Of a DNA stretch of 24,000 bases, positions 335 to 12,034 are shown piece by piece. Source of the DNA: an uncultured Coriobacteriaceae bacterium (GTDB lineage Bacteria; Actinomycetota; Coriobacteriia; Coriobacteriales; Atopobiaceae); the NCBI GenBank assembly GCA_902779675.1, contig CACZCK010000029.1:613-24612 (forward strand), read 5' to 3'. The translations under genes were made by a program, and so were the position numbers. Numbering within the stretch: position 1 is the stretch's first letter; the number at the start of each line of letters is the position of its first letter. The notes beneath the pieces were generated by a model. The model did not search any database and was not told where the DNA came from. It saw only the letters and a program-made list of their open reading frames with translations.

Positions 335-3193
335 ATGGCAGTGCATATGGATGTAACAACCGCAATGGAACAACAGATGGCTCCACTGTACTCGCGAGTG
401 GTTGCGCCGTACCTGGATCAGGCGACTCGCTCACTCGCAGGTACGCGCTTCGAACTGCTGCTTTCGCCCTCATGTCAAAAAGCGCAGCTGATGAGACTCT
501 CGGACACGCTGTGTGCGTATGCACGGGATGTGCTTGCCCATCTTGTTGCCACGCAGCTCTCGCAAGAGAACCCTCTCTGGAGCATAGACGTCACGCTCGC
601 GCCAGTTGCAGAGTTTGCACGTGCAGCAGAGAAGGTAGCCGAGGACCTGAGGGACTCCGATGCGGCCGTGCTGGACGATGTGGCACCCCTCCTTCGCTCC
701 AAGCTTGCGCGGCAGATGAGGCGCTTTGTCTCTGTAAGCTTGGAATCATGCGAGCGAATCTGGCGCGACCGGAACGTACTATCCACTGAGCTCCTCGGTA
801 AGAGCTTTGGCCTTGTGACGGATTTGGCCACCGAACAGAGCGACTGCCATAACGGCGGACGGCACACCACCGTGGTGACCTGCGAGGGCGGGCGCTTCGT
901 GTACAAGCCACGCGACTGTCGCATCGACGTGTGGTTCAAGCAGATCTGTCACAAGTACTTACCCGGCGTGCTCTTGCAGCCGAAGACGATTCTGCGCGAA
1001 GACGATACGGGTTCTTGGGCCTATCAGGAGTTCATGACACGCGATCCCGTGGACGATGAAGGGGGAGTTGCCCTCTACTGGCGCAACATGGGTCGCGCGT
1101 TCGCGATCTTTCACATGCTGGGGTCAGAGGATCTTCACGCCGAGAACTTCGTGGCGGTCGGAGAGCAGCCATCTCTCATCGATTGCGAGACGGTGATTAC
1201 GGGTGAGCCCGCCATGCGCGGCGACCCGCTTGTAAGCCCCAACATGAGCCACGTCTCCAAAGGCTTTGGGCGCGACCTTGCTGCAACACTTGTCATGAGC
1301 GGTCTACTTCCCTCCCCCAAATGGCCGCAAGCTTTCGGGGGCACGCAACGCCTCGCCCCTTCGGGCGACACGAGTCCGCTCCTCGCCCACGGCAAGAGCT
1401 GCCTGCCCATGCTGGCAGGCAGCGAGTACGACGTGCTTGGATACGAGGACGAGCTCTTTGGCGGATTCGAGGAGAGTCTGGCAGCACTCTCCTCCGTCTC
1501 TGATGCGCTCTGCGACGATCTGCAATCGGCATCGGGCATTCCGGTACGCCGTCTCATGCGAGACACAAGCGTCTACGGGCACGTACTCGCACGATTGCAA
1601 CGCACCGATGCCTATGATCCAACTGTTCGCGAGAAACTCCTTGAGGCCCTACATCGACCGTTCGTGCGTGGTCAAGAGTCCGCGAGGTCGCCCCTCGCGC
1701 AGAGCGAGGCAGCGTCCCTGCTCGTGGGCGACATACCATACTTCTACGCTGACGCACAGTCGCGTACCATCATGGGTTCCGATGGCACAGCTGACGACCT
1801 CCTTCTGGAGTCCAGTGCCATAGAGCGGGCAGGTACGCGCATAACATCTCTGGATGCGCAGCAGAGCATCTTTGCACGCGCAGTGGTAAGGGCCAATGTG
1901 CGTCGCGCGCTCGTGCCAGACCAGTCGGATGCCCCTGCATGCGTGGCCGCAAGGGAGCCGCTCACTGTCGAGGAGGCTCTCACAGAGGCGGGACATGTGT
2001 TTGACACGCTCGAAGGAATGGCTTTGATGTCACCATCGGGAGAGGAATCGTGGCTCTTCCGCGGCGAACACAAGGGCACGCTTGGCCAATCCACGATAGC
2101 TTTCGCAAACGGGTTGGGAGGCGTAGCAGTGTTCTTGGCTGCGTTCGCGGCGAGAGCGACGACCGATACGGCGCGCAGCCGTGCATTCGAGCTGCTCGAT
2201 GGCTGTCTCTCTCGTGTGGATGAGGTGCTCGAGGTCTTGGAGAACACTCGAACCATACCGGAGCGTTCGGTAGGGCTGGGCATCGCCAACGGACTCGGAG
2301 GCGTCGTCCGCTCGCTTGATCTTGTAGTGCGAGCGCTCGGCACCAGTGACACATGCGAGAAGCCTGCAGCATGTGCCACCCAGCTCCTTCTGCGTAGCAT
2401 TCCAGTGCTCGAGAAGGCAGATATAGAGGGCGCTGTACATCTGGATGTCTACTCAGGAGCTGCGGGAATGCTTCTCGCGCTCTCACAGTGCGATCTCGCG
2501 AGGAGGAGCTCTCGGGCAAAGGGGGTTGCAAAACGCTTGGCCCTGCAGCTTCTCAATGCGCGGACCCTTGTGACGAAGGATGGAGCCAGGCTGTGTGACA
2601 CGATGGGCACAAACTGGCCTGCAAGCGGTTTTGGCCATGGCCAAGCAGGCATAGGCGTGGCGTTCTCGGCGGCATCGAAGGCGTATGGAATTGATGCAAA
2701 CGACGCCTGCCAAGACAGCCTTGCCTGGGAGCTCGCGGCCCACAGCGAAAGACTCGGCACCTGGCCCGACCTGCGCAGGCTCCCCCTCTCGAGCAGGCAC
2801 ATGCACGGTGTCTGTTCAGGTGCACCCGGCGTAGGCCTTTGCGCCCTCTCCGTGCGTGATGAGACAGCAGACGATGCGGCATGTCTGCTTGCCAACAGGC
2901 TGCTCGTGCGCGCTGACAAGGCATGTCGAACGCTCCCCCCCAACTATCGCGACACACTCTGTTGTGGCAATGGCTCCCTCATCGAGTATCTGGTGTCAGC
3001 AGGACGCACAGACGACGCAGGGTGCCTGCTTGCGGGCATAGTCAAGAGACAGCGGTTGCTTGGCCACTATGTGTTCATGCCCAAAGGCGTGCGCCCCACT
3101 GACGATCCAAGTCTCCTGTATGGCCTCGCCGGCATTGGCTATGAGCTGCTTCGCTACGCCGACCCCGCTCTCGTTGGCATCTTTGTAGGTTGA
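335..3193 (+). CDS. lanM: Class II lanthipeptide synthetase (LanM: dehydratase plus LanC-like cyclase)
   Basis: This is a 952-aa ORF. The N-terminal half carries LanM dehydratase (DUF4135-type) signatures: DCHNGGRHTTVVTCEGGRFVYKPRD and DLHAENFVAVGEQPSLIDCETV. The C-terminal half carries LanC-like signatures: GFGHGQAGIG, VCSGAPGVG, LCCGNGSLIEYL and LLYGLAGIGYELL. ATG 335 has no clear SD, so ATG 347, 365 or 377 are alternative starts. Confidence 0.9.
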   Translation: MAVHMDVTTAMEQQMAPLYSRVVAPYLDQATRSLAGTRFELLLSPSCQKAQLMRLSDTLCAYARDVLAHLVATQLSQENPLWSIDVTLAPVAEFARAAEKVAEDLRDSDAAVLDDVAPLLRSKLARQMRRFVSVSLESCERIWRDRNVLSTELLGKSFGLVTDLATEQSDCHNGGRHTTVVTCEGGRFVYKPRDCRIDVWFKQICHKYLPGVLLQPKTILREDDTGSWAYQEFMTRDPVDDEGGVALYWRNMGRAFAIFHMLGSEDLHAENFVAVGEQPSLIDCETVITGEPAMRGDPLVSPNMSHVSKGFGRDLAATLVMSGLLPSPKWPQAFGGTQRLAPSGDTSPLLAHGKSCLPMLAGSEYDVLGYEDELFGGFEESLAALSSVSDALCDDLQSASGIPVRRLMRDTSVYGHVLARLQRTDAYDPTVREKLLEALHRPFVRGQESARSPLAQSEAASLLVGDIPYFYADAQSRTIMGSDGTADDLLLESSAIERAGTRITSLDAQQSIFARAVVRANVRRALVPDQSDAPACVAAREPLTVEEALTEAGHVFDTLEGMALMSPSGEESWLFRGEHKGTLGQSTIAFANGLGGVAVFLAAFAARATTDTARSRAFELLDGCLSRVDEVLEVLENTRTIPERSVGLGIANGLGGVVRSLDLVVRALGTSDTCEKPAACATQLLLRSIPVLEKADIEGAVHLDVYSGAAGMLLALSQCDLARRSSRAKGVAKRLALQLLNARTLVTKDGARLCDTMGTNWPASGFGHGQAGIGVAFSAASKAYGIDANDACQDSLAWELAAHSERLGTWPDLRRLPLSSRHMHGVCSGAPGVGLCALSVRDETADDAACLLANRLLVRADKACRTLPPNYRDTLCCGNGSLIEYLVSAGRTDDAGCLLAGIVKRQRLLGHYVFMPKGVRPTDDPSLLYGLAGIGYELLRYADPALVGIFVG

Positions 3194-3222
3194 CCGGCCG
3201 GTCACAAGGGAGGTCACTCAAG

Positions 3223-4197
3223 ATGAGAGACATGCTGTTCTCTGTTCTGTGCGGAATGCTGGCCGCAAGAGGCAGAGACGAGTCGCTGCTCGGTGATGAT
3301 AGAGCGGAGGCGCAATCGGCTTTCGCCCGCATGATGCCAGAACTTGGCAGAATCCATGCATACTTTGAGGTTCCGCTTACGGGTGAGCGAGGTCTCGACG
3401 TGCACTGTTGTGTGGACGATGCGGTGCCTGCAAGCTGTGTGCCGGACTCTGCTGACCCTGCATGGAAAGACGCCCTCGCGTGGTTTAGCGGCATTGCCCC
3501 CGTGCAAGCCAAGAGCGGTAGGGTGCTGCTTATGGCCGAGGCGGATACGAGCATGAACCCTTGCGCTCGTCCCGGCACCTACCTGATTCAACGCGAACGA
3601 CACGATCTTGTGGAGCCCTACCTTGCGGCTGTCAAAGAGGACGGCAGGCTTTCCGGATGGCAGGATTATTGCGCTCATCTTCCAAGGGGATGGAAGACGA
3701 GCTACGTTGGCCTCTTTCCTGGACGAGCGGGTGGCCATCTGCGCGTGAACGCACACCCATCTGTCGAGGCCTTGTGTCTTGATGAGGTGCTTGCGGAGCT
3801 CGGGCTATCAGTGGACAAGGAGTCGCTCGACCTCTGCCAAGAGCTGGTGACCGATGCATTGGGCTATGACATACAGTTGGACATAGACGACTGGGGAGTA
3901 CCCTTACCGGACTTTGCATTGGAGGTCTTCCTCGAAGGCACCGTGCCGCCCCGAGCCCCCGGGAACGATGGTCGTGTTGAGCGCGTCTTCGCACGCATGG
4001 AAGCAAGTGGCGCTGCCGACGCTCGTTGGCACCACCTCATGGGTGCGGATGTCTCCAAGCGTGTGACGTTGCCCCATTCAGGTGCGATGATCCCTTGCGC
4101 CGTGAGTCTGCGCACGTTTTCTGCAAAGGTGAGGTTCTCGGGCGGCAAGCCGTCTCTCTCTAAGGCCTACCTACGTGGTGACGCATGCGCCTTCTAA
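3223..4197 (+). CDS. Hypothetical protein (324 aa), probably co-transcribed with lanM; no family recognised
   Basis: ATG 3223 lies 9 nt after AAGGGAGG (3206-3213) and 30 nt after the lanM stop. The ORF-track start at 3190 is a TTG overlapping the lanM stop and is less likely. Third-position GC bias looks coding-like. The protein has 10 Cys and many short beta-strand-like segments (YFEV, VLLMAEAD, TYLIQRE, LRVNAHP, YDIQLDID, FALEVFLE, AKVRFSGG, KAYLRG). Confidence 0.75.
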   Translation: MRDMLFSVLCGMLAARGRDESLLGDDRAEAQSAFARMMPELGRIHAYFEVPLTGERGLDVHCCVDDAVPASCVPDSADPAWKDALAWFSGIAPVQAKSGRVLLMAEADTSMNPCARPGTYLIQRERHDLVEPYLAAVKEDGRLSGWQDYCAHLPRGWKTSYVGLFPGRAGGHLRVNAHPSVEALCLDEVLAELGLSVDKESLDLCQELVTDALGYDIQLDIDDWGVPLPDFALEVFLEGTVPPRAPGNDGRVERVFARMEASGAADARWHHLMGADVSKRVTLPHSGAMIPCAVSLRTFSAKVRFSGGKPSLSKAYLRGDACAF

Positions 4198-4316
4198 CAA
4201 GGTTCGCGTTGCAACGAGGAGACTGGCCCTGGGCCGTAACGCGGATCTTGCCAGAAGAAACTGACTCCTCCCTTCCGGTGTGAATCATCCCAAGAGGAGC
4301 CTTTTCTAGTGAAGTA

Positions 4317-4616
4317 AAGTGGTGCGCCGATCTCTCGTACGCACCACTTCTGACCTGCGGTTTTGTTGTCTTTTGGGGCGGAGCGTGAAAGACCGTTGCG
4401 ACCCTATTTTCACTCCCACTCAATCAGGATTGCGTTGCTATGGTAGCCCTAGGTGGCTCGGAGCGAGCCCTCGTGCCCACGCTGTCCGTCGTAGTTCCGA
4501 CTATCGTCTCCGCAGACGTCAAAGCGACGTCACGCGCGCTGTTCCCGCACCCGTGACGTCGCCTCACTCGAAGTCGGGTGACGTCATGACGTCACCCGAC
4601 AGTGTTTGCGCTGGTA
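4317..4616. repeat. Copy A of a ~300-bp non-coding element (5' hairpin module, 87-nt divergent core, GACGTC-palindrome module)
   Basis: By hand alignment it is homologous to 5913-6210 in the same orientation: about 85/111 identity in the 5' module, 51/87 in the core and 92/102 in the 3' module. The 5' hairpin is AAGTGGTGCG (4317-4326) paired with CGCACCACTT (4339-4348). It has five GACGTC sites (4515, 4526, 4555, 4580, 4588) and a perfect 28-nt palindrome at 4573-4600. Confidence 0.85.
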
Positions 4617-4648
4617 ATCATATGTGTCGATTATCAAACGGCAGGCGT

Positions 4649-5002
4649 CTAGCGCAGGAGCTCGCCTTCGAAGTACTGCTCCTGAAAGCGAATCGCCCGC
4701 AGTATCTCCTCGTCAGGGTAATCGGAGCCATCCAGAGAGACAATCCACTTGTCCTCCACATCATCCAGGCGGTGATACACGGCTATGACCTTGCCTTCGA
4801 ACGACTCGATCGGCTCGTCAGTGCCGAGCACATAGACGTCCTGTTCCTCGCCGTCACCCGCGATGACTCCGTCTACGAAGCCGTAGTTCACGGGATACAC
4901 CATGTCAGAGTGCCGGGGATGGCGGCTCCCGATGGGACGGTCGATCGTGCCCACGACAATCCTCCCGATGACGTCTTTTGCCAGGTCGTCTCTCCAAACC
5001 AT
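4649..5002 (-). CDS. Short family-I inorganic pyrophosphatase-like protein (117 aa)
   Basis: YPVNYGFVDGVIAGDGEEQDVYVL and HRLDDVEDKWIV match the family-I PPase core (YPxNYGFxP..DGDxxDVxVL and D..DxK). The N-terminal strand bearing the EIPxGSxxKYE motif is reduced to IDRPIGSRHPRH. The SD GGGGAG lies 8 nt upstream of the ATG and overlaps the stop of the preceding ORF. Confidence 0.8.
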   Translation of the reverse strand: MVWRDDLAKDVIGRIVVGTIDRPIGSRHPRHSDMVYPVNYGFVDGVIAGDGEEQDVYVLGTDEPIESFEGKVIAVYHRLDDVEDKWIVSLDGSDYPDEEILRAIRFQEQYFEGELLR

Positions 5003-5015
5003 TGCCGCTGCTCCC

Positions 5016-5237
5016 CTACGCCCAGAGGCCTCTGCGCGAGACCGCGTAGAGCGGCACGTTGCGCATCCACTCCTGCTCTCGGTAGCCCGAGAGGCTGAAG
5101 CGCACGGCCGACACCTCGGGATGGGCGCCCTTGAACGCGCGGAGACTCTTCGCCCGCAGGTTCTCCTCGGCCTTCACCTCGGTGGCGAACGTGCTGCCGC
5201 CTCTCGGCATGATCTTCATTATGCTCATCTTCGCCAT
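5016..5237 (-). CDS. Small hypothetical protein (73 aa, MAKMSIMKIMPRGGSTFATEVKAEENL...)
   Basis: This is the internal ATG of the 5016..5483 ORF; the stretch upstream of it is Arg/Pro-rich nonsense that overlaps the P-loop gene. From the ATG onward third-position G/C bias is strong. Its TAG stop sits inside the SD of the downstream PPase-like gene, which suggests translational coupling. No family was recognised. Confidence 0.5.
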   Translation of the reverse strand: MAKMSIMKIMPRGGSTFATEVKAEENLRAKSLRAFKGAHPEVSAVRFSLSGYREQEWMRNVPLYAVSRRGLWA

Positions 5238-5302
5238 TCTCGCCTGCCTTATGGCCCTGCGTCTGCTGGCGTGCGGGCTGGTGGTGCTGTGTCTTCTCGC
5301 CC

Positions 5303-5797
5303 TTATCGGTGGATGATCCGATCCGCCGCCATCACGGGCGTGAGGCCGGTGGTGTCCATCTTCTCGCCACCCAGGGCGTCGTAGAGCGGGAGCCTTGCCA
5401 GGCTGCGGCCGATGACGTCGGGCTGGCGGATTCCCGCGGAGACGTCCTTCCCCAAGCGGCGGCAGAGCTCTTCCTCCGAGCACACGAGGGAAATCGTCCT
5501 CACCAGGCAGCTTGAAACGTCAAGGCGCGAAAGCAAATCGTTGACGATCTCCTGCTCGTGCATGACCCAGCAGAAGATGACATTCTCATAGGCGCTACAG
5601 CGAATGAAGTTGTTCAGCACGTGGCAGATGTTGTCCATCACCATAGCCTTGGTCTCGTCGGTCACCACGAAGGGGGCTGCGTCCCAGCACCAGTCTCCGT
5701 CGAGCAGCACCGCGTTCGGCAACATCCGTTTGAGCTCTTGGCACGTGGCCGTCTTGCCTACACCCATGGTTCCGCCTATGAGGTAGAGCGTCTTCAT
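5303..5797 (-). CDS. P-loop NTPase / small-molecule or nucleotide kinase-like protein (164 aa)
   Basis: A Walker A motif, GGTMGVGKT, occurs in MKTLYLIGGTMGVGKTATCQEL, followed by LLDGDWCW. The size and layout fit the shikimate/gluconate-kinase-like AAA fold. I place the start at ATG 5797 (AAAGGA lies 9 nt upstream) rather than the ORF-track 5833, which overlaps the predicted -10. Confidence 0.85.
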   Translation of the reverse strand: MKTLYLIGGTMGVGKTATCQELKRMLPNAVLLDGDWCWDAAPFVVTDETKAMVMDNICHVLNNFIRCSAYENVIFCWVMHEQEIVNDLLSRLDVSSCLVRTISLVCSEEELCRRLGKDVSAGIRQPDVIGRSLARLPLYDALGGEKMDTTGLTPVMAADRIIHR

Positions 5798-5831
5798 CGT
5801 GCGCGTCCTTTTCGTTCTCGCTCTTCCCATC

Positions 5832-5860
5832 ATTGTAAGCGGTGTTTTTGACGTGGGTCA
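5832..5860 (-). promoter_or_regulatory. Candidate promoter of the P-loop/small ORF/PPase-like operon
   Basis: On the minus strand, TGACCC (rc of 5855-5860) is followed by a 17-nt spacer and TACAAT (rc of 5832-5837). This sits ~30 nt upstream of ATG 5797. Confidence 0.35.
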
Positions 5861-5912
5861 TTCTTCATCTTGCCTATTCGCACGGTTGGAGGAGGTTACC
5901 GCCTGTGGGACG

Positions 5913-6210
5913 AAGTGGTGCTCCGAATTCTCGGACACACCACTTTTGCCCTGCGCAAACGTTGTAATTTGGGTAGACCGTGAAAGAGCGTTGCGAGCCT
6001 AAAAAACTCCCACCCAATCAGAGAGACGTGGATGTGGCAGATTGTGGTGGTTCGAGACGCTCCATCGTATCCCCTGTCTCCACCGTGGTTCTGACAATCC
6101 TCCCTGCGGACGTCAAAGCAACGTCACGGGCACCGTTCCCGCGCCCGTGACGTCGCCTCACTCGCAGTCGGGCGACGTCATGACGTCGCCCGACCGAGTT
6201 TGCGCTGGTA
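5913..6210. repeat. Copy B of the ~300-bp non-coding element
   Basis: It is homologous to 4317-4616. The 5' hairpin pairs AAGTGGTG (5913-5920) and TCCGA (5922-5926) with TCGGA (5931-5935) and CACCACTT (5938-5945), followed by TTG to give CACCACTTTTG. GACGTC sites lie at 6109, 6149, 6174 and 6182, with AACGTC at 6120. A perfect 28-nt palindrome lies at 6167-6194. Confidence 0.85.
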
Positions 6211-6333
6211 GCGATGGCAAAAGAACCGAAGCACACGCTTAGCTCATGACATAGCGAGTGCCGCGGCCTGAACCTTGGACGCGAATCAGGCCCTTGGCCA
6301 CATTTCTAAGGCCCCCGCGTGCCACGCCAATCG

Positions 6334-6936
6334 CTAGAACAGGCGAACGAGCCACACCATCAGCAGCCCGACTGCCGCACCGACGAGCATGCCGGCGAGC
6401 ACCTTCCCCATGACGCTCGCAGCGAACGGCCTCTGGACGCGCTGCGCCCTGATCTCGTCCAGGGGCTTGCCGTCCACGAACGCCCTTATCTCGCGATATG
6501 TCTGCACGTCGTACTTCTTCTTGGCCTTCTCGACGAGAAAGGTGAAGTACAGGGCGATCACGTAGACGAGCAGGCACATCGCGAGCGCGAGCCAGTTTTC
6601 GTGGTCGAACGCCACCCCCGCCACGACCAACGACACGATGGCAAGCGAGCTTGAGATTGCCGTGTTGCGCCTGAACTCCCTCACGTCCTCCTCCGCGGCC
6701 CTCGCGTCCTCTTCCTCGATTCTTGCAGCGATCATGGGTAGGTCTCCTTTCACGAGTTCGTCTATGGAGGTCCCGAAGTGGCCGGCGATAAGGCTCAGGC
6801 TCTGCACGTCCGGATAGGACTTGCCGTTCTCCCAATTCGAGATCGTCTGGCGGCTCACGAACGCCTTCTCTGCCAGCTCCTCCTGCGACATCCCGGCCTC
6901 CGTTCGCAGGTCGCGTATCACCTTGCCCACTTCCAT
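6334..6936 (-). CDS. XRE-family helix-turn-helix regulator with C-terminal transmembrane segments
   Basis: The N-terminus IRDLRTEAGMSQEELAEKAFVSRQTISNWENGKSYPDVQSLSLIAGHFGTSIDELV is a classic Cro/C1 HTH. Hydrophobic stretches are ISSSLAIVSLVVAGVAF, LALAMCLLVYVIALYFTFLV and VLAGMLVGAAVGLLMVWLV. The SD AGGAGG lies 6 nt upstream of ATG 6936. Confidence 0.9.
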   Translation of the reverse strand: MEVGKVIRDLRTEAGMSQEELAEKAFVSRQTISNWENGKSYPDVQSLSLIAGHFGTSIDELVKGDLPMIAARIEEEDARAAEEDVREFRRNTAISSSLAIVSLVVAGVAFDHENWLALAMCLLVYVIALYFTFLVEKAKKKYDVQTYREIRAFVDGKPLDEIRAQRVQRPFAASVMGKVLAGMLVGAAVGLLMVWLVRLF

Positions 6937-6993
6937 TTCTGCCTCCTTCCAAGCCTTGTGGATCCTACCCTAGATGGTCCTTGCGCCATTGTC

Positions 6994-7044
6994 TGTCAAA
7001 TGGCGTTGCGAAAGGGCCGAAAACGGTGTCAAAACCCTTTGACA
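6994..7044. promoter_or_regulatory. Candidate operator/promoter region of the XRE gene
   Basis: TGTCAAA occurs at 6994-7000 and 7027-7033. TTTGACA at 7038-7044 forms a perfect 7-bp inverted repeat with a 4-bp spacer (TGTCAAAACCCTTTGACA). The motifs contain TTGACA -35-like hexamers on both strands. No good -10 was found. Confidence 0.35.
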
Positions 7045-7266
7045 TCCGCCTTTTGCTGGGTTTCTTTCCGTCTTCATCGGGTCTGTGACAATGGAGGATG
7101 CTGCTGCCACCAAACGACGAAGGGGGCGGCATGCTCGACGGATACGGACTTCACATGATCATCTGGGATTCGGCGGACGAGCGACTGGGTGACTTCCTGG
7201 TCGCCTCGTGAACCCAGCCACAAAACGTTTGGCTAGCAGGCACACGAATCCTCAAGGCGCAATCGG

Positions 7267-7336
7267 GTAGGAGGCGCGCCATTAGTTGGCGCGCCGTCCT
7301 CCCACACCACCGTGCGTACCGTTCGGTACACGGCGG
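7267..7336 (-). ncRNA. Intron ribozyme domains V and VI
   Basis: Domain V is CCGCCGTGTACCG-AA-CGGTACGCACGGTGG (rc of 7307-7336), with a 2-nt bulge and a CGC catalytic triad in place of AGC, as in IIC introns. Domain VI is GGGAGGAC-GGCGCGCC-AACTAAT-GGCGCGCC-TCCT[A]CCC (rc of 7267-7303), with a bulged A ~7 nt from the predicted 3' splice site. Confidence 0.8.
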
Positions 7337-7345
7337 TTCCCGGAC

Positions 7346-8761
7346 TTAACACTTCGCCTGCAGGTAACGGGGGTAGAAGAGGGTCCAGCCAAGCTCCGTG
7401 GGCTTGGCGTTGTCGAGCGCCCGGTCTAGGATGCCGCTCCCGGCCACGCGCCAGTATGCCTTGCGCGAGTTCGCCCACTGCCACGCCCGTCCCCGGCTGA
7501 CGCCGAGGCGCACGAGGGCGCGGAGTCTGGTGCCAACCCGTTTCCAGCACTTCCAGTACACGCAGCGCACCTTTCGGCGCGCCCACTTGTCCATGCCGCG
7601 GAGCAGGCTCCTCATGTCCGCGAGCCTGAAGTACCCGACCCATCCGTAGACGAGGTCCCTGAGCATGGCTTTCCTTGTCCCGAAGGACCAACCGTTGGAG
7701 CGCGAGAGAATCATCCGCACCTTGTCCCTGAGCGCGGCGACCGACTTGGGGTGCACGCAAAAGCGCAGCTCCCCGTCCTTCTGGTAGAAGGCGTACCCCA
7801 AGTATCCCACCTCGTCAGATATCTTCGCCACGAAGGACTTCTCCCTGTTGACCTTGAGGAAAAGCCTCCCCTCGACGAATGCCGCCATCGACTCCATCGC
7901 GCGCTCCGCCGCCTTCCTCGACCTCTTCAGGATGATGAAGTCGTCGGCGTAGCGGACGAAGGCGTGGCCCCTGCGCTCAAGCTCCCAGTCCAGCTCGTTG
8001 AGCAGGATGTTCGCGAGCAGGGGCGAGAGCGGGCCTCCCTGAGGGGTGCCCTCGTCGGTCGGCATCACGACGCCGTCCACCATGACACCCGCCATCAGGA
8101 AGCGGTGGATGAGCGAGACCACCCGCTTGTCCACGAGCGAGTCCGACAGGAGCTGCACCAGCTTGGACTGGTTCACGGTGTCGAAGAAGCGCTCCAGGTC
8201 CATCGACGCGACCCACACGCTGCCTTCGTCGGCACGCCTCTTGGCTGCCAGGAGCGCGTCGTGCGCCGAGCGGTTCGGCCTGAAGCCGTATGAGTCCCCG
8301 TGGAACCTCGGTTCGAAGATGGGCGTGAGCTGCTGCGCCACAGCCTGCTGGACCATGCGGTCCACGACCGTGGGTATCCCCAGAAGCCTGACCTTTCCCT
8401 TCTCCTTCTTCGGAATCTCGACCCGCCTCACGGGTCTGGGCCGGTACCTCCCGTTGAGAATCCTCGCCTCGAGCGCGTCGTAGTTGTTCCGCAGCCAGTC
8501 GTCGAGCTCGTCCGCCCGCATCCCGTCCACGCCGCCCGCGCCTCGGTTCTGCGCCACGCGCCTATATGCCCCGCGCATGTTCTCGCGTGAGCAGATCCTT
8601 TCCAGCAGGAATCTCGTGTTGCCTTCATCCGTGTTGAGTTCGTCCTCTTCGGTGTTCCGTGCGCGCGTCGGCGCCTCCGGCTGCTCCCGGGATTCCGTCC
8701 CTACCCTCCCCGGCTGGCCCTCGAAGTCGATTCGAAGTTGTCTGCCTTCCATCGCGTGCAT
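7346..8761 (-). CDS. Group II intron reverse transcriptase/maturase (no endonuclease domain)
   Basis: RT motifs are present: NRGAGGVDGM, LLGIPTVVDRMVQQA, SYGFRPNRSAHDAL, TPQGGPLSPLLANILLNELD and FVRYADDFIIL. A maturase X/thumb region follows (YLGYAF, WVGYFRLA). No HNH tail is present. The N-terminal ~55 aa look like an extension, so the true start may be internal. Confidence 0.95.
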   Translation of the reverse strand: MHAMEGRQLRIDFEGQPGRVGTESREQPEAPTRARNTEEDELNTDEGNTRFLLERICSRENMRGAYRRVAQNRGAGGVDGMRADELDDWLRNNYDALEARILNGRYRPRPVRRVEIPKKEKGKVRLLGIPTVVDRMVQQAVAQQLTPIFEPRFHGDSYGFRPNRSAHDALLAAKRRADEGSVWVASMDLERFFDTVNQSKLVQLLSDSLVDKRVVSLIHRFLMAGVMVDGVVMPTDEGTPQGGPLSPLLANILLNELDWELERRGHAFVRYADDFIILKRSRKAAERAMESMAAFVEGRLFLKVNREKSFVAKISDEVGYLGYAFYQKDGELRFCVHPKSVAALRDKVRMILSRSNGWSFGTRKAMLRDLVYGWVGYFRLADMRSLLRGMDKWARRKVRCVYWKCWKRVGTRLRALVRLGVSRGRAWQWANSRKAYWRVAGSGILDRALDNAKPTELGWTLFYPRYLQAKC

Positions 8762-8864
8762 GGTCTCTCTCAGCGACTCCCTCCGTCTGGGTTCGGGCCT
8801 TCGCGGCTGGCGCCGCCGCTACTACGCCCTCTGCTGACTCCTCGCGGTTCGCTGTTGCTGCTCG

Positions 8865-8915
8865 GCTGGCCCTTTCGTCCAAATCCTCGAAGCTGGCCCT
8901 CTCGTCCAAATCCTC
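8865..8915. repeat. Tandem duplication (24-nt unit, 27-nt period, 2 copies) inside the intron
   Basis: The units are GCTGGCCCTTTCGTCCAAATCCTC (8865-8888) and GCTGGCCCTCTCGTCCAAATCCTC (8892-8915), with 23/24 identity. They lie ~100-150 nt 5' (intron sense) of the RT start. Confidence 0.8.
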
Positions 8916-9196
8916 TTAGCCTGCGAGGCCTCCCGGGTAAGGCACGCACCCTTCCCCTCAATACCCGCCGCATTTACGTGCGTGGCTTCCGTGCAGCCAT
9001 CGGGCTTCGATGTGTTTGGCCATCTCACCCGCCGCGCCCGCCTGATGCGGTTCGTGTTCCTCGGGCCGAGGTTTCGCCTCCGGCTTCCTTCAGACTCCGC
9101 CTCGCGACGGACGCCCTTGCCATCGGCTACGCGCTTCCCGCTGCCGGGCGCGCCGGGGACTTTCACCCCTTGGGTGTGTGCCATGCCCGGCACACC

Positions 9197-9228
9197 AAAA
9201 AGGGCGCCTCGGATTCTTCCGAGGCGCC
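9197..9228 (-). terminator. Rho-independent terminator of guaA
   Basis: The minus strand has an 11-bp stem GGCGCCTCGGA/TCCGAGGCGCC (9203-9213 paired with 9218-9228), a 4-nt loop and then TTTTT (rc of 9197-9201). It starts ~30 nt after the guaA stop. Confidence 0.85.
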
Positions 9229-9259
9229 TCGCGTTTTCGCAGGTAAATAAGCTAATCCG

Positions 9260-10258
9260 TTACTCCCACTCGACCGTCGCGATGGGCTTCGGCGAAAGCT
9301 CGTAGGCCACGCGGCAGATGCCGGGCACCTCGGCCAGGATGCGGTCGCACATCTTGTGCAGCAGCGCCCAGTCGAGCTCGGGCACCTCGGCGGTCATGAC
9401 GTCGACGGTGTTGATGCAACGGATGATGCACGGCCACTCGAAGGCGCGCTTGCCGTCGCGCACGCCCGTCGCGCGATAGTCGGGCACCACGCAGAAGTAC
9501 TGCCACGGACGCTCCATCTGGCCGGCGGCGGAGGCAGCGTCAATCTCCTCGCGCACGATGGCGTCGGCCTCGCGCAGGGCATTCAGGCGGTCGCGGGTGA
9601 TGGCGCCGGTGCAGCGCACGCCCAGGCCGGGGCCGGGGAACGGCTGACGGTCGACCATGCTGTCGGGCAGGCCAAGCTGGCGACCAACCACGCGGACCTC
9701 GTCCTTGAAGAGCAGCTTGACGGGCTCGACGAGCTCCCAGTTGAGCTCCTCGGGCAGGCCACCCACGTTGTGGTGCGCCTTGACGCCCGCCTCGGACTCC
9801 AGGATGTCGGGGTAGATGGTGCCCTGGCCGAGGAAGCCGATGCCCTCGAGCTTGGCGGCCTCCTCGTCAAAGACCTTGATGAACTCCTCGCCGATGATGT
9901 GGCGCTTGGCCTCGGGATCGGCCTCGCCGGCCAGCAGGTCGAGGAAGCGGTCAGTCGCGTCAACGTAGATGAGCTCGGCGCCCAGCTGGTTGCGGAACAC
10001 GTCGATGACCTGCTCGGACTCGCCCTTGCGCATGAGGCCGTGGTTGACGTGCACGCACACGAGCTGCTTGCCCAGGGCCTTGATCAGCAGGGCCGCGACC
10101 ACGCTGGAGTCCACGCCGCCGGAGAGGGCCAGCAGCACCTTGCCATCGCCCACCTGCTCGCGGGTGTAGGCAACGGCCTCCTCGATGAAGGCGTCGGCGA
10201 GCTCGGGGGTGGTGATGCGAACCATATCGTCGGGGCGGTGATTGCTGGTGAAGTCCAT
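9260..10258 (-). CDS. guaA: GMP synthase, ATP-pyrophosphatase plus dimerisation part only (332 aa, no GATase domain)
   Basis: It has the PP-loop LALSGGVDSSVVAALL, then VHVNHGLMRKGE and GQGTIYPDILES, and the typical C-terminal end KPIATVEWE. The SD AAGGAG lies 5 nt upstream of ATG 10258. The ORF aligns with the C-terminal ~330 residues of a full-length GuaA. Confidence 0.9.
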   Translation of the reverse strand: MDFTSNHRPDDMVRITTPELADAFIEEAVAYTREQVGDGKVLLALSGGVDSSVVAALLIKALGKQLVCVHVNHGLMRKGESEQVIDVFRNQLGAELIYVDATDRFLDLLAGEADPEAKRHIIGEEFIKVFDEEAAKLEGIGFLGQGTIYPDILESEAGVKAHHNVGGLPEELNWELVEPVKLLFKDEVRVVGRQLGLPDSMVDRQPFPGPGLGVRCTGAITRDRLNALREADAIVREEIDAASAAGQMERPWQYFCVVPDYRATGVRDGKRAFEWPCIIRCINTVDVMTAEVPELDWALLHKMCDRILAEVPGICRVAYELSPKPIATVEWE

Positions 10259-10744: not shown

Positions 10745-12034
10745 ATGACCACACCTGACCTCATTCCCGTTCCCGCTTCCATCACCGACCCCGCATCCTT
10801 TGGCTTTGCTGCCTGCGAGGGCGGTGTGTGCGCCGCTGCAGGCATCCGTGCCACAGGCGTGCACGCGGGCTTCCGCGCCGACCCCAACCGCCTCGACATG
10901 GCTCTCGTCGCCGCCGATGAGCCCTGCGTCTGCGCGGCCACCTTCACGCAGAACCGCTTCTGTGCCGCCCCCGTGCAGGTCTCGCGCCCGCGCGCCGCGA
11001 GTGGCCACGCCCAGGCGGTCCTGCTCAACTCCGGCAATGCCAACGCCTCGACCGGCGAGCCTGGCGTGGCCTGCGCGCTCGCATCGGCCGCATGCGTGGC
11101 CAAGGAGCTCGGGTGCGCCGACGAGGACGTGCTCGTCGCCTCGACGGGCGTCATCGGCGTGCAGCAACCGCTCTGGCCCTTCGAGCAGGCCATGCCCGCA
11201 GCCGTCGAGTCGCTCGCGCACTCCCCCGCCGCCGCCCATGCCGCGGCGCGCGCCGTAATGACCACCGACACCGTGCCCAAGGAGGTCTCGCTCGAGGGAA
11301 CCGTTCCCTGCGGCCCTGATGGTGCACCCATAACCGTGCACGTGGGCGGCTTCGTCAAGGGGTCCGGCATGATCATGCCCAACATGGCCACCATGCTCTG
11401 CGTGCTCGCCACCGACGCTCCCCTCACGGCGCAAGCGGCCCAGAAGGCCCTCTCCGCAGCCGTGAGCGTCACGTTCAACAAGGTAACCGTCGACTCCGAC
11501 ACCTCCACCAACGACTCGTGCTTCCTGCTCGCCACGGGCGCGACCGGCGGCGAGCCCATCGACTGCGACTCGACGGCCTTTGCGCAGGTGGCAAATGCCA
11601 TCCGCTGCGCAGCCGAGCAGCTGGCACGCAAGATCGCCGCAGACGGCGAGGGTGCCACCAAGCTCGTGACCGTCGACGTCGTGGGTGCCGCGACCGATGC
11701 CGACGCCGACACCGTCGCACGCGCCATCGCCAACTCACCGCTGGTCAAGACCGCTATCTTTGGCCATGACGCCAACTGGGGCCGCGTGGCGGGCGCCGCC
11801 GGCAAGTGCGGTGTGGTCTTCGACCAGTACCAGGTGGACATCGACTTCCTCGGTGTGCCCGTGCTCCGTGCAGGCCTTCCGCTGCCCATGGACGAGGGCG
11901 ACATGCTCCGTCGCTTCGAGGAGCCAGAGGTGACCATAGCCGTCAACCTCGGCCAGGGCGATGCGAGCGCCCGCATCTGGACCTGCGACCTCACCCACGA
12001 CTACGTGACCATCAACGGCGACTACCGCACCTAA
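10745..12034 (+). CDS. argJ: Bifunctional ornithine acetyltransferase / N-acetylglutamate synthase
   Basis: It has GFAACEGGVCAAAGIRATGVHAGFR, the autoprocessing region MATMLCVLATDA, and STNDSCF, GHDANWGR and the end INGDYRT. I prefer ATG 10745 (AGAGGA SD a few nt upstream) over the ORF-track start at 10709. Confidence 0.93.
   Translation: MTTPDLIPVPASITDPASFGFAACEGGVCAAAGIRATGVHAGFRADPNRLDMALVAADEPCVCAATFTQNRFCAAPVQVSRPRAASGHAQAVLLNSGNANASTGEPGVACALASAACVAKELGCADEDVLVASTGVIGVQQPLWPFEQAMPAAVESLAHSPAAAHAAARAVMTTDTVPKEVSLEGTVPCGPDGAPITVHVGGFVKGSGMIMPNMATMLCVLATDAPLTAQAAQKALSAAVSVTFNKVTVDSDTSTNDSCFLLATGATGGEPIDCDSTAFAQVANAIRCAAEQLARKIAADGEGATKLVTVDVVGAATDADADTVARAIANSPLVKTAIFGHDANWGRVAGAAGKCGVVFDQYQVDIDFLGVPVLRAGLPLPMDEGDMLRRFEEPEVTIAVNLGQGDASARIWTCDLTHDYVTINGDYRT

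Follow-up and report, generated by a model that had tools for sequence, protein, structure and literature searches.

Paired non-coding repeats downstream of guaA in an Atopobiaceae contig as probable attachment junctions of small integrase-less cassettes

Results

The guaA locus and its junctions

The subject of this study is a pair of homologous non-coding elements in a stretch of DNA from an uncultured Coriobacteriaceae bacterium of the Atopobiaceae lineage (GenBank assembly GCA_902779675.1, contig CACZCK010000029.1, positions 613 to 24,612). "The window" denotes this whole stretch of 24,000 nt, coordinates are counted from its first letter, and related loci are cited by handles of the form L049. 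Copy A (4317-4616) and copy B (5913-6210) lie in direct orientation; the minus strand is the functional reading direction of the repeats, and all anatomy below is given on that strand. Read in this way, the window runs from guaA, which ends in a 12-nt segment that we call O (here O1), through a first unit (X), a degenerate O2, a second unit (Y), O3 and a type 1 tail to a set of lanthipeptide genes. Unit X consists of a type 3 tail with its terminator, a group II intron, an XRE gene, an AlbA_2 fossil and core B, and unit Y of a type 1 tail, an AAA_18 kinase-like gene, a DUF4143 fossil, a pyrophosphatase-like gene and core A. A and B are the junctions between consecutive units, each composed of a core, an O segment and a tail. 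The features that define these junctions are the following.

9260..10258, minus strand: guaA, GMP synthase ATP-pyrophosphatase/C-terminal part, 332 aa (Pfam GMP_synt_C and PP-loop families); target gene of the integration hotspot
9260..9271, minus strand: O1, GAGTGGGAGTAA, the last 12 nt of guaA including the stop codon; left direct-repeat copy (attL-side core)
9195..9259, minus strand: type 3 tail, the first 65 nt of inserted DNA; intrinsic terminator GAGGCGCCTCGGAAGAATCCGAGGCGCC followed by TTTTT, now terminating guaA
6006..6210, minus strand: core B, arm of ~205 nt with P1 at 6167-6194, P2 at 6118-6156 and five GACGTC motifs
6005..6016, minus strand: O2, TGGGTGGGAGTT, a degenerate guaA-end repeat that overlaps the final bases of core B
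5913..6004, minus strand: tail of B, type 1, ending in the hairpin AAGTGGTG..CACCACTT; homologous to the native downstream flank of guaA; start of unit Y
4412..4616, minus strand: core A, arm of ~205 nt with P1 at 4573-4600, P2 at 4524-4562 and five GACGTC motifs; 32 nt after the pyrophosphatase-like stop codon
4410..4421, minus strand: O3, GAGTGGGAGTGA, right direct-repeat copy (attR-side core); overlaps the final bases of core A
4265..4409, minus strand: tail of A, type 1, with a hairpin at 4317-4349; directly follows guaA in L049 and L053, with 2 positions different

Anatomy of the repeat

Alignment of 4280-4660 with 5876-6250 by MAFFT, scored per segment, gave 228 identities in 300 columns for A against B. 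An earlier reading of the window, made from its letters alone and referred to here as the sequence-only reading, had described two homologous elements of about 300 bp in direct orientation, and its figures were reproduced exactly: 85/111 with two 1-nt gaps (4317-4427 against 5913-6021), 51/87 without gaps (4428-4514 against 6022-6108) and 92/102 (4515-4616 against 6109-6210). It had also stated that homology stops at both edges. This holds between A and B, whose flanking columns are identical at the random level (7/37 and 18/44), but not against other genomes, where the tail of A continues for about 50 nt to ~4265. An independent repeat search returned a 205-nt direct repeat (4412-4616 and 6006-6210) and, in each copy, a perfect 28-bp palindrome together with a 39-bp inverted repeat; as previously noted, there were no terminal inverted repeats.

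Each copy is built of three parts, a core of ~205 nt followed by the 12-nt segment and then by a tail of ~95 nt. The core starts with TACCAGCGCAAAC, soon after the stop codon of a cargo gene, and ends with CTGATTGAGTGGGAGTAA; the distance from stop codon to core is 40 nt or less, on the same strand, in 27 of 58 copies. The distances given earlier for the window, 32 nt from the pyrophosphatase-like stop codon and 123 nt from that of the XRE gene, are correct, but the second gap holds the fossil end of an AlbA_2 gene whose own stop codon lies 28 nt before B. The segment O, GAGTGGGAGTAA, is identical to the last 12 nt of guaA, with one base different in A and a degenerate sequence in B; the gene ends ...GTCGAGTGGGAGTAA, and its last 12 nt match the end of the core. 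The sequence-only reading had missed this match between the end of guaA and each element, the gene lying 3 kb outside the coordinates that it reported.

The core is marked by a repeated hexamer. Five copies of the motif per core, in both orientations, make up P1, a perfect 28-bp (11-6-11) palindrome of sequence GTCGGGYGACG TCATGA CGTCRCCCGAC, and the inverted repeat P2. Cores contain this motif, GACGTCAC/GTGACGTC, at 12.2 per kb and the remaining sequence at 0.08 per kb, a difference of ~150-fold. Clusters of it outside cores are rare and lie ~300 nt downstream of the core/O junction in L141, L136 and L140; L035 has a single outside match, in the sequence downstream of guaA. We suggest, from sequence features, that the GACGTC motifs are arm-type sites for an integrase or an excisionase-like protein. 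Such a second small cluster of the motif, GATGACGTCAAAACGACGTCACGG...GGACGTCACG, stands ahead of cargo genes in four loci (L141 ~11,440-11,480; L035 2,660-2,690; L136 730-770; L140 ~7,200-7,230) and may represent matching sites of the other arm, or an operator.

The tails are interchangeable, and three types are found after cores. Type 1 is the 5' module with a strong hairpin of the sequence-only reading, in type 2 a textbook intrinsic terminator comes after GACCGCTACAAAATTGTGCGATTCTCC, and in type 3 a terminator comes after CGGATTAGCTTATTTACCTGCG. All three also follow guaA directly, in different strains and species, as would be expected if elements integrating at O had the tails as their other arm. 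The sequence-only reading did not recognise that its hairpin module is the ordinary downstream flank of guaA and lies outside the mobile module. We propose that the tail of A is the B' arm or, alternatively, a P' arm of phage type.

The empty site

An identical GuaA protein is encoded in 21 contigs, whose content downstream of the gene varies. Two of these, L049 and L053, have the type 1 tail of copy A joined straight to guaA; beyond the tail they carry a convergent gene of 324 aa and a LanM gene, as does the window. Compared with L049, the window has an extra 4,850 bp (4410-9259), placed exactly between GAGTGGGAGTAA (9260-9271) and GAGTGGGAGTGA (4410-4421). We conclude that the window holds an insertion of 4,850 bp between two copies of a direct repeat, and that L049 and L053 show the empty site. 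Other contigs with the same GuaA differ again: the layout of L055 and L058 resembles that of the window, L052 has other genes after guaA and then cores, and five (L048, L050, L051, L054 and L056; from 10,984 onward) have a prophage with a GH25 lysin and tail genes immediately after guaA, O and a type 1 tail. The type 3 tail of the window also stands directly 3' of guaA in L055 and L009.

The synonymous base just before the repeat (window 9272; L049 10,987 and equivalents) varies between GTC and GTT among strains with identical GuaA, and within the repeat the same strains have either GGGAGT or GGGAAT, variants that also occur at the ends of cores. Such sharing between the guaA end and the core ends is expected if repeated recombination swaps sequence there.

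We considered whether the core is a diverged duplicate of the 3' coding end of guaA. Once the 12-mer was removed, DNA alignments were no better than those of shuffled sequence, and translation of the core in the frame that the stop codon dictates revealed no excess of similarity to the C-termini of GuaA. A "DVMT"-like GACGTCATG in frame with the stop codon occurs in only 5 of 50 copies. As the rest of the core is unrelated to guaA in both DNA and translation, the shared segment is a short attachment (att) core and not a gene duplication.

A family of arrays at guaA

Genomes were first scanned, one per species, with a 20-nt palindrome motif, and the returned loci were checked with local blastn and nhmmer. 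True copies were present in ~25 loci, frequently 2-3 copies per 8 kb, labelled as Atopobiaceae, Coriobacteriaceae, Coriobacteriales, Olsenella or uncultured actinobacterium metagenome-assembled genomes, together with Parafannyhessea umbonata. A metagenome scan with a second core motif added 22 core-bearing loci. Searching the fetched loci with the core in nhmmer gave 73 core copies in 55 loci, nearly all labelled Atopobiaceae or Coriobacteriaceae. This spread excludes both a chance resemblance and a local duplication, the latter one of the outcomes that the sequence-only reading had left open when it called for a copy count and for empty sites in relatives. Most copies elsewhere match only positions 94-300 of the element as first described. 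No match to copy A was found by blastn in PLSDB (plasmids) or INPHARED (phages), a scan of IMG/VR with two core motifs gave no true core, and no description of a Coriobacteriia RNA motif or of an RNA associated with DUF4143 came up in our search of the literature.

Within a locus, the cores are always co-oriented, never inverted, and lie 1.0-9.4 kb apart (core to core); wherever a locus reaches far enough, guaA is upstream (L002, L009, L035, L052, L055, L058 and L141). Genomes with GuaA proteins of only 50% identity still have cores that are 75-95% identical, which argues that the core is either under constraint or spreading horizontally. The cargo is varied. It includes defence genes (Thoeris, ApeA, Shedu, two restriction-modification systems, and DUF4143 and AlbA_2 ATPases) as well as RelB/ParE and Phd/ParE-like pairs, glyoxalase/VOC proteins, an acetyltransferase, a bile-salt hydrolase and others. 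In the cultured strain Parafannyhessea umbonata KHGC19 (L035), one unit alone separates guaA-O from core-O, and it carries a methylase, Eco29kI and ApeA. Remnants of the 3' end of a glyoxalase gene precede the cores behind DUF4143 genes in L012, L028 and L044; evidently cargo is replaced from the 5' side, with the gene end and core retained.

Integrase-bearing relatives

L141 contains a single unit of 11 kb between guaA-O-type 2 tail and core-O-type 1 tail. From the guaA side, its genes are a C5 methylase frame (read from the DNA, without a domain scan), NgoMIV, a MobA/VirD2 relaxase, AAA_25, a tyrosine integrase, an HTH_17 (excisionase-like) protein, an XRE protein and cargo. The integrase has 357 aa, with Arm-DNA-bind_4 at its N-terminus and the further domains Phage_int_SAM_3 and Phage_integrase. 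Contigs with homologues of this integrase (71-97% identity) share a backbone of XRE, then a divergent xis-like gene, integrase, NikA-like gene, a helicase-like AAA_25 gene and relaxase. Four of them, L146-L149, extend far enough to show the element's end, and each has a core at the XRE side in the same orientation. In the minimal version (L148 and L149), the core starts 26 nt after the XRE stop codon, whereas elsewhere cargo stands before it: an ApeA gene in L146, a Shedu gene in L147 and, in L014, which has a fragment of the same integrase, a Thoeris system. In six loci the core marks one end of such an element. We therefore assign it as the P arm, to use the terminology of lambda, of integrative mobilizable elements (IMEs) that form one family and target guaA.

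Three IMG/VR contigs (L063, L066 and L067) have the same O beside a type 1 tail, with an upstream arm unrelated to the core. Phage lysis genes lie downstream of the type 1 tail in L063 and L067, where that region was read, and the upstream arm of these two has a repeated hexamer of its own, GACTAC. In L066, a tyrosine integrase of 462 aa with the same arm-binding domain reads toward O. At least two integrase families thus use the same 12-nt site, and the pattern fits arms that are specific to each integrase. Upstream in L063 are also a Gabija-like OLD nuclease and a UvrD helicase.

Recombination among copies

In an all-pairs comparison, the cargo gene with the first ~40 nt of the core, the remainder of the core, and the tail assort independently. 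The window and L055, for example, show 100% identity between the XRE gene and the middle of P1 and ~75% beyond, and the end of one glyoxalase gene is found fused to three or more different cores. By change-point mapping, breakpoints concentrate around P1 or the left core edge and near O, with others inside the core and the tail. Breakpoints thus spread beyond O, and homologous recombination or gene conversion between repeats explains part of the pattern. P1 was considered as a unique site-specific crossover and set aside; several pairs do break nearby, but breakpoints range from the left edge to the tail.

In three loci (L025 6,887; L010 ~1,029; L142 ~3,476), the core is joined after ..GATTGAG to an unrelated ACAGCTCTGCTCG.. 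that leads into the 3' end of a relaxase operon, a junction that splits the 12-nt segment in the middle. P1 is additionally deleted in L142, between two GACGTC motifs. These junctions may mark the real position of strand exchange or may be deletions.

Discussion

We suggest that A and B are att junctions of integrase-less, cis-mobilizable cassettes accreted at guaA, in which the core is the P arm of an IME and crossover falls in GAGTGGGAGT; we put the probability of this at roughly three in four. Four observations carry it: the direct repeat, the empty site, the association of cores with arrays at guaA and their association with the integrase. Site-specific recombination at the 3' end of guaA would yield both A and B. 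The core would be the P arm of the attachment site of Atopobiaceae IMEs, the 12-nt O the crossover segment, with strand exchange presumably inside GAGTGGGAGT, and the tail the normal downstream flank of guaA. The unit that runs from the XRE gene to core B and the kinase/pyrophosphatase unit that ends in core A would be decayed or miniature derivatives, comparable to cis-mobilizable elements (CIMEs), reduced to cargo, arm and crossover segment. They would have been stacked by successive integrations at one site (accretion), with the IME integrase acting on them in trans, and homologous recombination between the repeated cores would additionally shuffle their modules. The window units, bounded by O1, O2 and O3, have neither integrase nor relaxase; it is because they have kept arm and crossover segment without genes for recombination or transfer that we describe them as cis-mobilizable and as decayed or miniature. 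The sequence-only reading had likened the layout to cassettes separated by recombination sites and had listed a non-autonomous mobile element among the alternatives, and tandem integrase-less units that each end in an att arm are close to what it had in mind.

Several observations weigh against this interpretation. No recombinase or relaxase domain was detected in any open reading frame (ORF) of the 24-kb window, which bears out the earlier statement that it holds neither transposase nor integrase, and no integrase or relaxase was found within ~8 kb of most arrays; mobilization in trans is accordingly something that we infer. Among the assemblies there is no excised circle and no strain that lacks just one unit, the window and L049 differing by two. 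The O2 at the end of B, TGGGTGGGAGTT, is degenerate, and B may be an inactive fossil junction. Reassortment breakpoints occur beyond O, many at the left edge of the core or in P1 and some inside the core. We also infer, rather than observe, that the GACGTC motifs belong to the integrase and not to another protein. Finally, mismatches in the inverted repeats are mostly G·T on the minus strand, a bias that an arm acting purely as double-stranded, protein-bound DNA does not predict. In view of the strand-biased G·U excess, the transcript may yet have a role, given that the core is situated in the 3' untranslated region (UTR) of the cargo, before a terminator, and so may single-stranded DNA.

A bolder proposal, which we hold tentatively and regard as rather unlikely, is that the core is a self-sufficient portable module, a functional analogue of the integron attC site in Actinomycetota, possibly active as a folded single strand. 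The IME integrase, acting in trans, would then take up cassettes of one to three genes, mostly anti-phage and toxin-antitoxin genes, at the guaA end and stack and reshuffle them there. Action as a folded strand would explain both the G·T strand bias and the palindromic nature of P1, where many breakpoints lie.

The same strand bias speaks for the core as a structured RNA in the 3' UTR of the cargo, where it might act as a stabiliser, a processing site or a regulator ending at the tail terminator, with the link to recombination secondary. The fold of copy A has z = -6.4 on the minus strand and -3.4 on the plus strand, the consensus energies are -48 and -27 kcal/mol, respectively, and the minus strand is lower in energy in 21 of 26 copies. 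Non-Watson-Crick cells in helices are G·U in 164 cases and A·C in 13 (25 against 4 pair columns). A stop codon precedes the core and a terminator follows it, clean and intrinsic in type 2 and 3 tails and a strong hairpin in type 1, and P1 of L148 is changed on both arms with pairing kept. Covariation is nevertheless nil: the score is 0.154 against 0.153 for shuffled alignments, with 96.8% and 96.7% of cells paired, respectively. Double changes occur at three pairs where 0.9 are expected, a number reached by 28 of 500 shuffles, and the variable P1 pair combinations (16, 6, 2 and 2) are close to those under independent assortment (15.2, 6.8, 2.8 and 1.2). The central 87 nt have no fold common to the subfamilies; RNAalifold assigns none, and the subfamilies have different local hairpins. 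The helix arms are built of a palindromic hexamer repeated five-fold, which suggests a sequence-specific binding motif, and an RNA would leave the 12-nt guaA repeat and the integrase link unexplained. The Rfam 15 covariance models gave no match to A or B at gathering scores (4200-6350) and, at E<=10, two chance-level hits only, in agreement with the earlier failure to recognise an RNA family. Given the nil covariation and the lack of a common central fold, we have not filed the core as a structured RNA and judge this explanation unlikely.

Related proposals were discarded along the way. Paralogous non-coding RNA genes and a bidirectional terminator or insulator, both suggestions of the sequence-only reading, are not supported: covariation does not exceed that of shuffles, and the sequence upstream of the core varies among copies, with no conserved promoter. 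A riboswitch or attenuator for the downstream gene was rejected because downstream genes are functionally unrelated and the tails interchangeable. An insertion sequence (IS), a miniature inverted-repeat or palindrome-associated transposable element (MITE or PATE), a bridge RNA and an omega RNA were rejected too, there being no transposase, IS110-type or TnpB-type gene in any neighbourhood examined; for an IS, a MITE or a derivative of IS200/IS605, terminal inverted repeats are also absent, and the copies form co-oriented arrays at one type of locus instead of being scattered.

Capture in the manner of an integron is less credible still. On this view the core would be portable and would recombine in the form of a folded single strand, as attC does, with single cassettes captured at guaA in trans. 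The co-oriented cassettes of 1-9 kb carry the site at their 3' ends, immediately behind the stop codon, their cargo (toxin-antitoxin, glyoxalase/VOC, acetyltransferase and defence genes) resembles that of chromosomal integrons, and pairing is strand-specific and tolerates G·T, with a predicted helix that pairs CCGACU with the AGUGGG of the crossover segment. However, the closing helix has five pairs only and is without covariation. There is no IntI-type integrase and no attI beside an integrase gene; the head of the array is guaA, and no integrase stands next to it in the window or in those loci whose guaA-downstream region was read or ORF-scanned. The sole integrase found with cores is of the lambda/Tn916 type with an arm-binding domain, and such enzymes act on double-stranded sites. 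Sites of the attC class are imperfect palindromes of 57-141 nt whose structure is conserved but whose sequence is variable, unlike the core, which is 205 nt long and 75-95% conserved. That the repeats are remnants of old insertions with no site-specific role now, spreading by RecA-dependent exchange through 200-300 bp of homology, is the least credible explanation of all: it accommodates the independent assortment of gene end, core and tail, the scattered breakpoints (some inside the core) and the degenerate crossover segment of B, but not a core far better conserved than GuaA and kept at the same end of intact integrase-bearing elements, nor an insertion whose boundaries coincide exactly with the 12-nt repeat.

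Accretion of IME-derived cassettes at guaA, the explanation that we prefer, has clear precedents. The 3' end of guaA is a published attB site, used by Tn5801-like elements with 11-bp direct repeats (PMC4844618), by GIsul2, whose integrase moves an integrase-less sub-unit through an internal att site (PMC9376610), and by ATE-1 of the actinobacterium Trueperella pyogenes, a Brucella island and phages (PMC5704250, PMC9782041). Tn5801, GIsul2 (with its CR2-sul2 sub-unit) and ATE-1 share with the present elements the target (the last bases of guaA), short direct repeats and a tyrosine integrase; they differ from them in that the backbone here is XRE, with xis-like, integrase, NikA-like, AAA_25 and relaxase genes, and a GACGTC-rich arm, both specific to this family, and the plasmid and phage collections have no DNA match to copy A. 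That integrated elements decay into att-flanked cis-mobilizable elements, and that these accrete in tandem with newly arriving ones, is an established model, known from ICESt1/ICESt3 of Streptococcus thermophilus (reviewed in PMC5704250). As in that model, the units here have kept att sites, lost genes for integration and transfer, and lie in tandem at the 3' end of a conserved gene, a site shared with related autonomous elements that encode a tyrosine integrase. Unlike it, they are of 1-9 kb, numerous, loaded mostly with defence and toxin-antitoxin cargo, and all share one conserved arm of ~205 nt across many Atopobiaceae and Coriobacteriaceae genomes.

The attP site of phage lambda offers a second comparison, with a long arm beside a short crossover segment, a short motif repeated in both orientations and an integrase with an arm-DNA-binding domain, although the role of arm site is here a prediction and the motif, unlike that of lambda, is palindromic and set in two long inverted repeats able to fold as single-strand hairpins. 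Integron attC arrays are likewise co-oriented, and their cassettes have the recombination site at the 3' end and contain no recombinase. The present arrays differ in lacking IntI and attI and in having the end of a housekeeping gene as their target, and their site is long, with a conserved sequence. The ssrA-specific genomic islands of Dehalococcoides are likewise arranged in tandem, the 3' end of the gene recurring as direct repeats. Target gene and phylum are different there (PMC3146451), and we treat the comparison as a lead only.

The kind of system, accretion of IMEs and CIMEs at the 3' end of guaA, is therefore already known, and we describe neither a new RNA nor a new type of element. 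What is new is the family of elements that targets guaA, its long conserved GACGTC-rich arm, and the many very small cassettes (1.0-9.4 kb) of cargo plus arm. A puzzling non-coding repeat is explained as part of a recombination hotspot, and the mobilizable family with its miniature derivatives, previously undescribed, is placed in Atopobiaceae and Coriobacteriaceae genomes, many of which come from ruminant-gut metagenome assemblies. The 205-nt core with the 12-nt guaA repeat gives a sequence handle for variable defence cargo in metagenomes. If it is true that cassettes move singly in trans, they would constitute a natural platform for gene capture outside the integron paradigm.

Other features of the locus

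The remaining features of units X and Y are listed below; the window has no tRNA.

7262..9196 (ends approximate), minus strand: group II intron with a reverse transcriptase/maturase ORF at 7346-8761 (Rfam RF02001 and RF01998; Pfam RVT_1 and GIIM; junction sequences)
6334..6936, minus strand: XRE-family HTH protein with a hydrophobic C-terminal region, 200 aa (Pfam HTH_3); cargo of unit X
6239..6300, minus strand: fossil 3' end (last 20 codons, ..GSGRGTRYVMS*) of an AlbA_2/SLFN-type ATPase gene, its stop codon 28 nt before core B
4649..5797, minus strand: cargo of unit Y, comprising the next three genes or fossils (Pfam)
5303-5797, minus strand: AAA_18 P-loop kinase-like gene (Pfam)
5016-5240, minus strand: ORF of 74 aa, fossil C-terminus of a DUF4143 ATPase (57 residues; PADLOC PDC-S01 match, residues 374-430 of 439)
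4649-5002, minus strand: short pyrophosphatase-like gene (Pfam)

The fossil AlbA_2 sequence is the end of intact genes in L003, L038, L025 and L091. The next unit of the window (335-4197, plus strand) has a LanM-type lanthipeptide synthetase (DUF4135 and LANC_like) and an ORF of 335 aa without a Pfam hit. The end of that unit is seen in sister contigs (L049 15391-15780 and L058 9693-10080), ~100 nt past the start of the window, as a fossil guaA 3' end, ..YDITLKPRDN/EWE*, followed by another GAGTGGGAGTAA and a type 2 tail; the array thus extends past the window.

The group II intron is a passenger outside the repeat. Its D1-D4 domains, as recognised by Rfam, sit immediately past the terminator that follows guaA, and the targeting of terminators is a known behaviour of class C introns. 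A related intron lies in L024 (~7600-7700), after the equivalent terminator of a type 2 tail.

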